From: a virus
Taxonomy: Duplodnaviria; Heunggongvirae; Uroviricota; Caudoviricetes
DNA length: 21,304 nt
IMG/VR virus record: IMGVR_UViG_2778261461_000001
Location: 1-21,304 of that record
Strand: one strand, 5' to 3'
Shown here: positions 587 through 9,190 of the stretch, piece after piece
Position numbering within the stretch: position 1 is the stretch's first letter
Layout of the letters: each line of letters starts with the position of its first letter
Notes under the pieces: generated by a model
The model's database searches: none
What the model was told of the DNA's origin: nothing
What the model saw: only the letters and a program-made list of their open reading frames with translations
Made by a program: the position numbers and the translations under genes

Positions 587-1119
587 ACCTTAACTTAATG
601 ATTTTGATAAAAATCATTAGGGGATTCATCAGTGCTTGGCAGGCATAATAAGAGGCAATAGAGTAAAAATCCCGAAAGAACAAGATATGCCATGTACGCT
701 TCAATTAACGATGATATATGTCGGCATCACCTTTTTCCTAATTGTCGGTTATATCTGCCATCAAATAACTTAGAACTGATTTAGAATTGAATTTGATAAA
801 GCTTACTACAAAGTAGTTTTGTCAATGTTCAACCTGTTTATCAAACCTACGGTGACTTTTTATGACTGGGAATGGTATCAATACTGTACGCATAAACAAC
901 GAAGTGAAACACATCTCAGAGTTAGATCCGGAGATCTCTTTTTCTTGAATGGAATAAACTGAAAAGTGAAAATAACGAACTGTATCGCTGCATAAAGGAA
1001 GCAAATTCTGGTTGGCGTGGTTTTGTCCTTCGTTTAATAGGGGTTTATCTACCTGATGGCAAAACAATTGTCATTAAACCCTAGATTATTTGAATATTCC
1101 TAAACATAGGCTTAATAAG

Positions 1120-1143
1120 AAAAGCCACTGAAAAGTGGCTTTT
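1120..1143 (-). terminator. Rho-independent terminator downstream of the H-NS-like ORF
   Basis: Perfect hairpin AGCCACT-gaaa-AGTGGCT; on the minus strand it is followed by TTTTCTTATT, 30 bp after the stop at 1175. Confidence 0.5.
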
Positions 1144-1174
1144 GAACTGAGCTGTTCGCGATTTTAATTTCAAC

Positions 1175-1933
1175 TTAGATGAGGAAATCATCCAGTGTTT
1201 TACCGGCTTCAAGTTGTTCGGCCAGTGCTTTAGGGGTACGCCCCTGGCCAGTCCAGGTTTTCGTTTCACCATTAACATCAGTGTATTTATATTTCGCAGG
1301 GCGCGGTTCGCGAACTTTTTTAGGTGCTCCGGACTTTGCAGAGAAAGAACTCAGTAACTCTTCAGGGTCAATTCCATCTTCAAGCATTAATTGACGCAGG
1401 GATTCAATCTTCTCCAGACGCGCTTTCAGCTCAGCTTCTTTTGAAGATTCTTCCTGACGTCGTTCTTCAATATTTGTATCAACCTGAACCTTCTGTATCT
1501 GCTGGATCGCTGCACTCTGGTCTTCCAGTTTCTTATTGACGGTCTGTGTGATTTCATTGCTGACATCCGTAATGGACGTCCTGATTTCAGCCAGGTCAGG
1601 CGCAAGCTGACCGTTATCAATCTGCGTCCACAGCTCCTGAGCCAGATGGGTTTTCCCTATCTCGCCTTTGAAAAAATCCAGATAGCCGGATGCATCATCA
1701 CTCGGCTGACCAACAGCCTCCACGAATGCCGATTTGCCAACGGTGTTCACACTGCGGATATAAAAGTAATAATCATGGCCCGGTTTGATATTGATACTGG
1801 CGGCTATCCAGTACAGCGCCGTACCAAGATAGCTGCTGCTCCCCAAGCCACACAGGAGGCTCATTATCTCCGGCCATACGCGCATCATGTTCCTGCCATT
1901 GTTTCGCGTGTGCCCAGGCATCACTACCCGCAA
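1175..1933 (-). CDS. Chimeric ORF: lambdoid host-specificity protein J internal fragment fused in frame to an H-NS/StpA-family C-terminal region (probable recombination product, possibly pseudogene)
   Basis: Residues about 35-105 ([41 protein letters not shown]...LDFFKG) match the lambda J C-terminal region; residues about 155-252 (IEERRQEES...[13 protein letters not shown]...[24 protein letters not shown]...LDDFLI) match the H-NS/StpA linker and DNA-binding domain including the TWTGQGRTP motif. The annotated start is TTG and there is no ATG near the H-NS-like part. Confidence 0.55.
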
Positions 1934-2003
1934 AAATAATGACTTCTGTTCCTTTGTGTTTTATGCCGCGTGACTGCTGTTTTACGTTCGGTGCCAGTTT
2001 CAT
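1773..2003 (-). CDS. Hypothetical small protein (76 aa); 3' end reads J-derived DNA out of frame, so likely truncated by the insert/J junction near 1831
   Basis: ATG at 2003 overlaps the upstream stop (ATGA) and is preceded by AGAGG; the C-terminal about 20 codons overlap J-homologous DNA in another frame. Confidence 0.4.
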
Positions 2004-2915: not shown

Positions 2916-3194
2916 GACTCACTCCCTGGCGGATTTTTGCAGCGAATACAGCAACACAACCGGACGGGCAACGGCTACGCGCTTCGCGTTCCGTCCAGGC
3001 GGTTACGTGGATGATTTGAGATTCTCCGGCACTCAGTGCCAGAAAACGCCACACAAAGGCCGTTTGTGTGTGTACAAGGTGTGGTATATGATTTACAGCA
3101 ACCATAACGGCTCCTAGTTTACGTTGTTGGTTAGACGCCCCGTATGTGTTCCCAGCACTGCGGGGCGTTGCTCTTTGTATTTCAACAATCCTTT

Positions 3195-3275
3195 CGGTGT
3201 GTTTCATGTTATGAGCGCATGAAACACACGTCAAGGCTTTTTGTATTTCTTTTTTTGTGTATACTGAAACACACC
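3195..3275. promoter_or_regulatory. Putative operator/promoter region between the RHH regulator gene and the small-protein operon
   Basis: Inverted repeat GTGTGTTTCATG (3197-3208) - 9 bp - CATGAAACACAC (3218-3229), with a third half-site TGAAACACAC at 3265-3274 overlapping a TATACT -10-like hexamer (3260-3265) about 30 bp upstream of the RHH start. Confidence 0.4.
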
Positions 3276-3295
3276 GATGATTAGGAGTTTCAGAA

Positions 3296-3601
3296 ATGGC
3301 AACGGCTAACAAAAACGCAAAATCACAACTGACAACTGTCAGAGTCCCACTAGATGTTATGCAAGGGATGGAATCCGTTAAGCTGGACGGTGAAAGCAAT
3401 GCCGGATTTATCGTAACCGCCATGCGCGGAGAAATAGCCCGCCGCCAAGCAGAAGGCAGCGGAGAAAATCCCCTTGTGTCGTCACTGGATGCCCTGGCTA
3501 AGGTCGAACAAATCGGCATCAAAGCAGCCGAGGAGATCGGGCAACTCGTCACCGTCGCGCGTGAAGAACTCCAGCGACGCAAGGTCAAAGAGCATGAATA
3601 G
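3296..3601 (+). CDS. Putative ribbon-helix-helix (Arc/CopG-like) transcriptional regulator (101 aa)
   Basis: AGGAG 8 nt upstream of the ATG; N-terminus (TTVRVPLDVMQGMESV...AGFIVTAMRGEIARRQ) has a beta-strand then two helices typical of RHH; sits beside the palindromic operator. Confidence 0.55.
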   Translation: MATANKNAKSQLTTVRVPLDVMQGMESVKLDGESNAGFIVTAMRGEIARRQAEGSGENPLVSSLDALAKVEQIGIKAAEEIGQLVTVAREELQRRKVKEHE

Positions 3602-4569: not shown

Positions 4570-4827
4570 TTATTGCTGTTTTGTTTTTCCAGGTTTCCAT
4601 CCAGGATGCCACTCACCACGGATCCATGCCTGAACCTCTGAAAGTCGATACCCTGCAGCACGTTCACCGATCTTGATACGTCGCGGGAATTTACCTGCCT
4701 GCTCCATTTTCCAGCGTGTTGAGTTTGCCAGCGTGGTAAGTGCTATGCACTCTTTTTCACGAATGAACCGATCAATGTCCTTCATTGTGCGCAAATCGTT
4801 TTCATCAACAAGAGAATAAATTGCCAT
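4570..4827 (-). CDS. alpA: AlpA-family transcriptional regulator / excisionase-like protein (85 aa)
   Basis: Sequence (...GKFPRRIKIGERAAGYRLSEVQAWIRGEW...) matches the AlpA/Vis-type HTH family; start is 1 nt after the integrase stop, GAGGTGG upstream. Confidence 0.8.
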   Translation of the reverse strand: MAIYSLVDENDLRTMKDIDRFIREKECIALTTLANSTRWKMEQAGKFPRRIKIGERAAGYRLSEVQAWIRGEWHPGWKPGKTKQQ

Positions 4828-4828
4828 A

Positions 4829-6070
4829 TCACACCACCTCTTTATTAAGCTCGATAACGTTGTTGTTAAATCCTGCTATCGTATTAAGGTAATTAACCCA
4901 CATATTAAGCACCTCAAGTTTTTTCTTTATATGCCTGCTTTTATTGTAAACACCAGCAACCCCTTTCACTTTATGACCTAAAAGAAGTTCGACAATATAA
5001 GGATCCGCCCCCATATCATTAAGCGTAGTGGAAAATGTGCGCCTGAAATCATGTATGCACCACAAGCCATTAGTATCATGACCAAGACGCCTGCATATTC
5101 TGTTTGCAGCCCCTGTTATTGTCGCCCTTTGCAAAGCACAACCGACAACATAACCGCGATTTTTTGTTTCTGCGTAAAGATTAACGATCCATTGTTTTAT
5201 TCCGTCAGGAACAGGCCTTACTATAGCCTCCTTGTTTTTGCTGTGCTCTTTTGGGACTGTCCATACCCAGTTTTTTAAATCCCATTCGTCCCAGGTGGAT
5301 AGCCTCGCCTCCTGCTGTCGGCAACCAAACACCAGGCAGATAACCATTATTCTTCGGTTATATATTGATGACAGAGTTAGCAAATTATTACCGTAAGCAT
5401 AAGACCATACATCAGCGGTTTCATTGATATTAAGAACGCGATCCCTTATACCGGATGAGCGCCCGACATAACTTACGTTAATATCTCCAAAGGGATCGCA
5501 CGCGATGTATTGCCTGACGCGACAAAAACGCAACGCCTGTTTGATATCAAGAAAAATTGCACCAGACATAACAGGCGCATTTTTTTTGATCCTGTCAAAG
5601 ACGGTAAGCCATGTGTGTAATTTGCACTGTTCTATAGCCATATCACCGATATAGGGGAAGATATGCTTTTCAAATCGTTTTATTAAATATTCATGCTCTT
5701 TTCTGGCTGTTGTGGCGTGATTGTCGTACCAGTAAAACAGCGCATCCCTTACGGTCACTGGTTGCATAGTTTTTTCGGCAGCAAGTTTTATTTGCCTGCG
5801 GGGGTCCAGATTTTCAGCCAGCCATTCACGGCACTGATCACGCATGCGCCTGGCCGTTGCAAGAGACATGTCAGGATAGCGACCAAGTGTAAGCCATACC
5901 GGAGGGGATTCCCTGCCACCAAGACGATAGTAAAAAACAAAGCTGATCCCCCCAACCATGCTTACACGCACAGACAACCCGCGCCCATCCGCTATTGTTT
6001 TTTGTTTGTCCTGCCGTTTTCCGACAAGACTCTTTAACAGTTTGTCACTGAGTTTGTTTTCAATAGCCAT
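4829..6070 (-). CDS. int: Tyrosine recombinase (P4/CP4-57-type integrase with N-terminal arm-binding domain), 413 aa
   Basis: N-terminal DUF4102-like arm-binding region (GRGLSVRV...FYYRLGGRE...LTLGRYPDMSLATAR) and C-terminal catalytic motifs (HDFRRT, LLGHK, GVYNKSRH); GAGGG upstream of the ATG. Confidence 0.85.
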   Translation of the reverse strand: MAIENKLSDKLLKSLVGKRQDKQKTIADGRGLSVRVSMVGGISFVFYYRLGGRESPPVWLTLGRYPDMSLATARRMRDQCREWLAENLDPRRQIKLAAEKTMQPVTVRDALFYWYDNHATTARKEHEYLIKRFEKHIFPYIGDMAIEQCKLHTWLTVFDRIKKNAPVMSGAIFLDIKQALRFCRVRQYIACDPFGDINVSYVGRSSGIRDRVLNINETADVWSYAYGNNLLTLSSIYNRRIMVICLVFGCRQQEARLSTWDEWDLKNWVWTVPKEHSKNKEAIVRPVPDGIKQWIVNLYAETKNRGYVVGCALQRATITGAANRICRRLGHDTNGLWCIHDFRRTFSTTLNDMGADPYIVELLLGHKVKGVAGVYNKSRHIKKKLEVLNMWVNYLNTIAGFNNNVIELNKEVV

Positions 6071-6086
6071 TAAAAGCCCTCAAGAG

Positions 6087-6142
6087 ATTTGCAATACACA
6101 CCCATCCCGATCGCCAATTTGCAATACACATTGCAATACACA
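6087..6142. repeat. Three direct repeats of TTGCAATACACA upstream of the integrase start (candidate arm-type or regulator binding sites)
   Basis: Copies at 6089-6100, 6119-6130 and 6131-6142, 20-70 bp upstream of int. Confidence 0.5.
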
Positions 6143-6270
6143 AAACCGCGAAAAACTGGAAGGGTGATGAACGGTCATCAAAAGCATGGAAAACGACATT
6201 CCAGACGCAGCAAGGGTTTCAGTGGAGTTGGCGAACGATGCGGGCAACTACGGTGAGATGATAGACATAA

Positions 6271-7303
<1,033 letters not shown>

Positions 7304-8896: not shown

Positions 8897-9190
8897 ATGA
8901 AAAAAATGTTGTTTTCTGCCGCTCTGGCAATGCTTATTACAGGATGTGCTCAACAGACGTTTACTGTTGGAAACAAACCGACAGCAGTAACACCAAAGGA
9001 AACCATCACCCATCATTTCTTCGTTTCGGGAATTGGACAGGAGAAAACTGTTGATGCAGCCAAAATTTGTGGCGGCGCAGAAAATGTTGTTAAAACAGAA
9101 ACCCAGCAAACATTCGTAAATGGATTGCTCGGTTTTATTACTTTAGGCATTTATACTCCGCTGGAAGCGCGGGTGTATTGCTCACAATAA
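8897..9190 (+). CDS. bor: Bor lipoprotein (serum-resistance, lysogenic conversion), 97 aa
   Basis: MKKMLFSAALAMLITGCAQQTF... with lipobox LITGC; matches lambda Bor; AGGA upstream of ATG at 8897 (the ORF-track start at 8849 is rejected). Confidence 0.85.
   Translation: MKKMLFSAALAMLITGCAQQTFTVGNKPTAVTPKETITHHFFVSGIGQEKTVDAAKICGGAENVVKTETQQTFVNGLLGFITLGIYTPLEARVYCSQ

Follow-up and report, generated by a model that had tools for sequence, protein, structure and literature searches.

Three 12-bp repeats beside the integrase of a truncated, helper-embedded satellite as candidate arm-type sites

Three exact copies of a 12-bp sequence stand directly upstream of the second integrase gene in a cryptic lambdoid prophage of E. 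coli, and they are best read as candidate arm-type sites, probably for the N-terminal domain (Arm-DNA-bind_3) of that integrase, which belongs to a satellite inserted in the prophage portal gene. The DNA analysed, here called the window, is the whole stretch of 21,304 nucleotides, and its matches in E. coli chromosomes fall at bio-ybhC, the lambda att site, inside a decayed lambdoid prophage. Two of the repeats (R1 and R2) are the doubled motif published for helper-embedded PICIs (HE-PICIs) by Tommasini, Mageeney & Williams 2023 (NAR Genom Bioinform, PMC10111431), and the third (R3) is an extra half-site. Since the attachment-site account in that paper already gives the motif, its position and candidate binders, the present result is mainly confirmation; relative to that account, it adds a fifth half-site by the int start that is specific to one integrase subclade, and a variant of the motif that keeps this geometry in a satellite inserted at hpt. 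The repeats are a real, functional-looking feature, and an earlier note on this DNA, made from its letters alone, was right about them in its main line. The features on which the argument depends are the following.

6131-6142, minus strand: R1, half-site, core-proximal half of the doubled motif; exact copy, reading TGTGTATTGCAA in the int sense
6119-6130, minus strand: R2, half-site, second half of the doubled motif at a 12-bp period; exact copy
6089-6100, minus strand: R3, half-site, extra single copy; exact copy
4829-6070, minus strand: satellite tyrosine integrase (int), 413 aa; Arm-DNA-bind_3 (PF13356) E=3e-17, residues 7-94; Phage_integrase E=1.7e-14
4570-4827, minus strand: AlpA-family wHTH protein, putative excisionase/activator; Phage_AlpA E=5e-14; PDB 8C3T E=1e-7
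6279-7100, minus strand: helper portal gene (lambda B type), N-terminal fragment; match to Phage_portal_2 over profile positions 2-242 of 354
6266-6278, no strand: attL core, with the identity block ATCGCCTT at 6271-6278, common to the intact portal gene and the other junction
6165-6180, no strand: palindrome TGATGA-ACGG-TCATCA between doublet and core; candidate site for AlpA or an accessory protein

On the plus strand TTGCAATACACA occurs exactly at 6089-6100, 6119-6130 and 6131-6142, with start-to-start spacings of 30 and 12 bp and no fourth exact copy in the window; the unit reads TGTGTATTGCAA on the int-sense strand, as the earlier note had it, and two of the three copies extend to the 14-mer ATTTGCAATACACA. 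The note had reported a triple 12-mer lying 20-70 bp upstream of the integrase start and about 130 bp from the junction, which agrees with our measurements of 18-72 nt from the integrase ATG (6070, minus strand) and 129 nt from the last repeat to the junction block ATCGCCTT (6271-6278). R3 sits between the doublet, 18 bp away, and the int ATG, 18 nt away, with 7 nt between its end and a Shine-Dalgarno-like GAGGG. By our own arithmetic a given 12-mer should match exactly about 0.003 times in 2 x 21.3 kb, so that three such matches within 54 bp are far beyond chance. A search for the 12-mer across the window, which the note had suggested, recovers it exactly at these three sites only; with up to 2 mismatches there are 7 matches in total against 3.2 expected (at least 7 in 7 of 100 shuffles), and the four 2-mismatch copies outside the repeat cluster are at chance level. 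A lone exact GTGTATTGC at window 9173-9181 (plus strand), in the prophage region, was judged to be chance, and an antisense ATGTATTGCC within int (ORF about +558), kept in several relatives, was judged to reflect coding conservation.

The integrase has Arm-DNA-bind_3, central and catalytic domains; its PF13356 score exceeds the curated cut-off, and its N-domain has homologues among CP4-like integrase N-domains of known structure (PDB 3JU0, 3JTZ). Directly downstream of int lies alpA, followed by a Bro-N gene. On the other side of the repeats is the portal fragment at 6279-7100, labelled 'portal protein, missing C-terminus' by PGAP, co-oriented with int and split by the satellite; in intact elements its C-terminal counterpart lies at the far end. 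The element ends where the earlier note placed its end, at a junction in the split portal gene 129 nt past the last repeat. The window element is a truncated HE-PICI of group B:Phage_portal_2:241: int, alpA and primase lie inside, and point the same way as, a prophage late gene split without any replacement sequence. This split is seen in full around the 11-kb element of three related loci (L004, L006 and L009), where the gene order is Nu1-A-W-portalN, then int, alpA ... primase ..., then portalC, and the window holds the int-side junction only. Elements of E:Phage_cap_E:80 and B:227, which likewise lie in split late genes, have integrases 54-55% identical to that of the window, and the assignment to the HE-PICI clade is made on this identity and on the identity block.

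In L004 (strain GZEC065) an intact 11-kb element stands between the N- and C-terminal portal fragments and carries int, alpA, Bro, YlcI/YnfO, Icd-like, DUF4222, primase, SSB, E-like capsid, decoration, HTH and small terminase genes. The window copy has no far end or attR, a remnant of its primase being fused to a remnant of the tail-tip gene J (window 626-2003), and terminase A is likewise gone from the helper (at ~7449 there is a gap of 1.8 kb against L004, which leaves a 216-aa Nu1-type ORF). Without attR, recombination cannot occur here; the satellite copy is a relic, and neither satellite nor helper is mobile in its present state. An ORF at 1175-1933 (minus strand), inside the PGAP-labelled tail-tip pseudogene, combines a fragment of the second Ig-like domain of J with matches to the H-NS N- and C-terminal domains (E=1e-9 and 5e-16). 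The embedded satellite explains both the split portal gene and the second integrase of this cryptic prophage, and the repeats are a landmark for such a satellite and for its exact end inside a prophage portal gene.

HE-PICIs have been described at 14 lambdoid late-gene sites (PMC10111431), and the supplement of that paper lists B:Phage_portal_2:241 as an E. coli group with the identity block 'aaggcgat'. According to its attachment-site description, each attP carries the doubled motif tgTGTATTGCantgTGTATTGCa as two co-oriented doublets, one 81±2 bp upstream of the centre and the other 132±2 bp downstream of it; the motif is called unique to HE-PICIs and unlike IHF sites, and the integrase arm domains, AlpA or another, unnamed protein are proposed as binders. 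The reverse complement of 6119-6142, TGTGTATTGCAATGTGTATTGCAA, matches tgTGTATTGCantgTGTATTGCa and is co-oriented with int. The window agrees with the published group in sequence, int orientation, distance from the centre, the block aaggcgat and host species, and with HE-PICIs as described there in the order int-alpA-Bro zone-primase and in being embedded, in the same orientation, in a lambdoid late gene. With ATCGCCTT centred on 6274.5, the doublet at 6119-6142 starts, at 6142, 132.5 bp from that centre, against the published 132±2. A far-arm doublet spans about 77-99 bp from the centre in intact relatives (L004, L006, L009 and L036) against the published 81±2, for which the paper's description does not state the measuring point; the window, holding a truncated element, is without it and in this differs from the published HE-PICI attP. 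The published HE-PICIs have two doublets, that is four half-sites, whereas the window's subclade adds the single copy at 6089-6100, of which the attachment-site description and the supplement legend of that paper make no mention. Our literature search found no later experimental work on the doubled motif.

Of 5426 complete E. coli genomes, about 64 have the integrase, which adjoins the portal fragment in every case inspected, and homologues in Edwardsiella tarda (88% identity), Serratia quinivorans (77%) and a metagenome (69%) occupy the same site in a lambda-family portal gene, co-oriented with Nu1-A-W-portal. An alignment of homologous elements, also proposed in the earlier note, finds the repeats conserved at the element boundary between diverged spacers: among relatives with 69-88% identical integrases, three copies with 12- and 30-bp spacing are invariant, while the spacers and flanks around them diverge (alignment A1, mean column identity 75%). 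R1 is invariant in the E. coli, Edwardsiella, Serratia and metagenome relatives, GTGTATTGC is invariant in R2 (A1 columns 159-180), and R3 is invariant in all sampled members of the window's integrase subclade (A1 columns 198-212). On the far arm, the intact elements of L004, L006 and L009 have exactly two further copies, co-oriented and at a 12-bp period (alignment A2), and an Erwinia element (L036) also has the far-arm doublet beside the same core. Beyond the arm repeats, no further exact copies were found inside the elements of the relatives compared.

Doublets of TGTATTGC occur at both ends of more distant elements in E. coli (L011, UILP01000031.1), Citrobacter (L013) and Klebsiella (L016), inserted respectively in a lambdoid capsid E gene that is split, at a different portal position and in a Clp-protease/capsid gene, with integrases 54-55% (L011 and L013) and 51% (P0023, of L016) identical to that of the window; these three independently reproduce the late-gene tropism published for HE-PICIs. 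R3 is absent from the HE-PICIs of other site groups that were compared (L013, L016 and L090; B:227, C:CLP_protease:110 and Xenorhabdus), and the capsid-E group has no more than a degenerate copy, on the core side. Read by eye, all sampled elements have one motif copy whose end lies 3-8 nt ahead of the Shine-Dalgarno sequence of int; in the window's subclade, where int starts ~35-50 bp further from the core, the RBS-adjacent position is taken by R3. Across HE-PICI groups that share the motif and differ in their cores, the arm domain is 64-69% identical and the core-binding and catalytic domains 45-53%. If the Int arm domain is shown to be the binder, invariant arms combined with fast-changing cores would help explain how this integrase clade is repeatedly re-targeted to new prophage late genes. 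A scan of genome contigs with the integrase protein gave no match, the species representatives there being without the element; an exact scan of genome contigs (596 Gb) for TGTATTGCNNNNTGTATTGC returned mostly chance matches in unrelated phyla (~280 expected by chance), and among the matches listed only Erwinia (L036) and Xenorhabdus (L090) were relevant.

The core was defined by a three-way comparison of the uninterrupted portal gene of phage 2G7b with the left and right junctions of L004, and the reconstructed attP core is CATAAA-GGCGA-TTTATG. From the crossover centre to the first int-side TGTATTGC is 134.5 bp in five loci of the window's subclade and 134.5-137 bp over all sampled elements; the first far-arm TGTATTGC lies 95.5-98.5 bp from the centre (97.5-98.5 in L004, L006 and L009), and the two doublets are 232 bp apart in HE-PICIs. 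Across site groups the crossover distance holds to within a few bp, whereas the distance to the ATG varies from -23 to -85. As is expected of arm-type sites, the repeats are distinct from the core, occur on both arms at fixed distances and accompany an integrase with an arm-DNA-binding N-terminal domain. The arms of the palindrome at 6165-6180 are largely kept in the E. coli, Edwardsiella, Serratia and metagenome relatives, while its flanks diverge (A1 columns 122-137); by eye, other HE-PICI groups have an IHF-consensus-like YAANNNNTTGATW at the equivalent place. A scan of 5950-6400, from the portal fragment to int, found no sigma-70-like promoter or terminator.

The same layout with another motif occurs in an E. 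coli capsid-forming PICI at the start of hpt (L017, NZ_CP136018.1), whose Int is 46% identical to that of the window. Here the motif is the variant GTGTATCAC, with the unit GGTGTATCACTC present twice in each of two doublets (L017 22687-22710 and 7287-7310), one next to int and the other on the far arm; 233 bp separate the two, compared with 232 bp in HE-PICIs. The HE-PICI layout exists with a different motif, although the published description holds the doubled motif to be unique to HE-PICIs (PMC10111431). The motif covaries with the element clade, and the same layout with a different motif implies an element-specific binder, not a host factor; a site for IHF or Fis was rejected on this ground, two satellites of the same host species having different motifs in the same layout.

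In lambda attP the arm-type sites P1, P2 and P'1-P'3 are bound by the N-terminal domain of Int, and the sites of the P and P' arms are inverted relative to each other. The repeats resemble them in being unrelated to the core, in lying on both arms at tens to ~150 bp from the crossover, in numbering five in the window's subclade and in accompanying an integrase with a separate N-terminal arm-binding domain. They differ in that the integrase is of the P4/CP4 type (Arm-DNA-bind_3) and in that the candidate sites are co-oriented 12-bp tandem doublets; that all five half-sites of the intact elements are co-oriented counts, by comparison with lambda, against the arm-type reading. A second comparison is with KplE1 (CPS-53) IntS/TorI and P4 Int/Vis, in which int likewise abuts attL and the arm sites lie just upstream of the int start; in the K-12 sequence we see a repeated GGGTAAAA beside the intS ATG and at attR. 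In KplE1 the promoter PintS and the arm-type sites of attL overlap, and IntS acts as a repressor of its own gene (PMC2951348). In contrast to the present case, KplE1 targets a tRNA gene rather than a prophage late gene and has a mapped PintS where no recognisable promoter is found here; IntS is 23% identical to the window integrase and the site sequences are unrelated.

We propose that the repeats form the int-proximal arm of the attL of an HE-PICI inserted at codon ~241 of the Phage_portal_2 profile in a lambdoid portal gene, and that R1-R3 would be bound by the Arm-DNA-bind_3 domain at the N terminus of the integrase. On the excised circle, a second co-oriented doublet would lie ~232 bp away across the core, and an integrase tetramer could bridge the arms and core to build an intasome for integration and excision. 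The earlier note had offered arm-type integrase sites at the element end as one of its readings; that reading fits all of the comparative evidence (invariance, fixed crossover distance, presence on both arms), and the same idea is put forward in the published attachment-site account (PMC10111431), with binding by Int standing as a prediction for what are candidate sites. We infer both the identity of the binder and any regulatory role from sequence comparison. Less certainly, bound integrase may also limit transcription entering int, whether from a weak promoter of its own or by read-through from the helper late operon, in a negative autoregulation of the IntS/KplE1 kind, with R3 perhaps keeping a site adjacent to the RBS in the window's subclade. 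The absence of a recognisable promoter or terminator before int fits read-through from the helper late operon, which is discussed for HE-PICIs together with excision that restores the interrupted gene (PMC10111431); as there is no recognisable promoter on which autoregulation might act, that step would be the less certain part of the reading. It is conceivable, if rather improbable, that the fifth half-site, and more broadly the motif copy that abuts the int RBS in each sampled element, is dispensable for the intasome and instead serves as an Int-bound gate that throttles late-operon read-through into int-alpA, a feedback timer for the satellite excision that restores the helper portal gene. 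Such a gate, if real, would couple helper late transcription in cis to satellite excision, in a way that is mechanistically undescribed. R3 could also be a neutral local duplication that became fixed in one subclade.

The repeats might instead be sites for AlpA, acting as recombination directionality factor and/or activator of int-alpA, rather than for the Int arm domain, an assignment that we consider unlikely but that has points in its favour. The alpA gene lies directly downstream of int in every element, and AlpA is as universal in these elements as the arm domain and about as conserved (57-84% identity); both diverge in the hpt PICI, so that covariation with the motif does not separate them. 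AlpA is named as an alternative binder in the HE-PICI account (PMC10111431), and wHTH proteins of the AlpA/Vis/TorI type do bind tandem direct att-arm repeats, for example TorI at its sites in KplE1 attL (PMC2951348). Four or five half-sites suit an integrase tetramer, however, and giving them to AlpA would leave an integrase with a clear arm-binding domain without any arm-type site. Directionality factors normally have their sites on a single arm, in the interval from the arm-type sites to the core (as in lambda and KplE1), whereas the motif stands on both arms at fixed distances and is the outermost of the conserved blocks; the palindrome at 6165-6180 is better placed for an accessory protein. 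The presumed recognition helix of AlpA also stays much the same between the hpt PICI (SSRWKMEQ) and the window element (STRWKMEQ) despite their different motifs, and residues in the arm-domain beta-strands differ, a weak argument that assumes which residues make the contacts. 

That the repeats are instead an int promoter, or another cis element such as iterons or a packaging site, with no dedicated recombination protein, is in our judgement very unlikely. They do lie directly upstream of int and contain TTGCAA, which agrees with the -35 consensus TTGACA at 4 of 6 positions, yet no hexamer pair passes a lenient sigma-70 scan, the same doublet stands on the far arm where no gene starts, and it is the distance to the crossover that is fixed while the distance to the ATG varies. 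As for other cis elements, the published description puts the PICI origin downstream of pri, and cos-like sequences elsewhere (PMC10111431), and no further copies exist inside the elements; replication iterons and pac or cos sites were rejected, given the lack of extra copies within elements and a position tied to the crossover. Least probable of all, and hardly to be credited, is that the repeats serve as operators for the divergent YlcI/YnfO-type RHH regulator, or for a regulator shared with the operator region 3197-3274. The earlier note had hinted at one regulator for both regions, and GTGTGTTTCA, of which the window has three copies upstream of its YlcI/YnfO gene, is indeed matched by the int-sense GTGTATTGCA at 8 of 10 positions. 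But none of the nine other related loci examined contains GTGTGTTTCA, and the idea of a common regulator is contradicted by L004 and L002, which have identical TTGCAATACACA repeats and different operators (of the GGTATTCA and GTAAGAC types) that covary with the N-terminal residues of their own YlcI proteins. Moreover, the Edwardsiella and metagenome elements keep all five copies with no YlcI/YnfO gene annotated or called in the retrieved locus, whose ORFs were not scanned for one. The 8/10 resemblance between repeat and operator is best treated as coincidence, judging from these sequence comparisons.

The YlcI/YnfO operator regions compared were the following.

Window 3160-3300: YlcI/YnfO operator region
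L004 19360-19562: YlcI/YnfO operator region
L002 5648-5846: YlcI/YnfO operator region
L017 18817-19018: YlcI/YnfO operator region

The operator repeats in these regions are wholly different among very similar satellites (GTGTGTTTCA, GGTATTCA, GTAAGAC and GGTGTTGAACAC), and their covariation with the YlcI N terminus looks as though immunity types have diversified.
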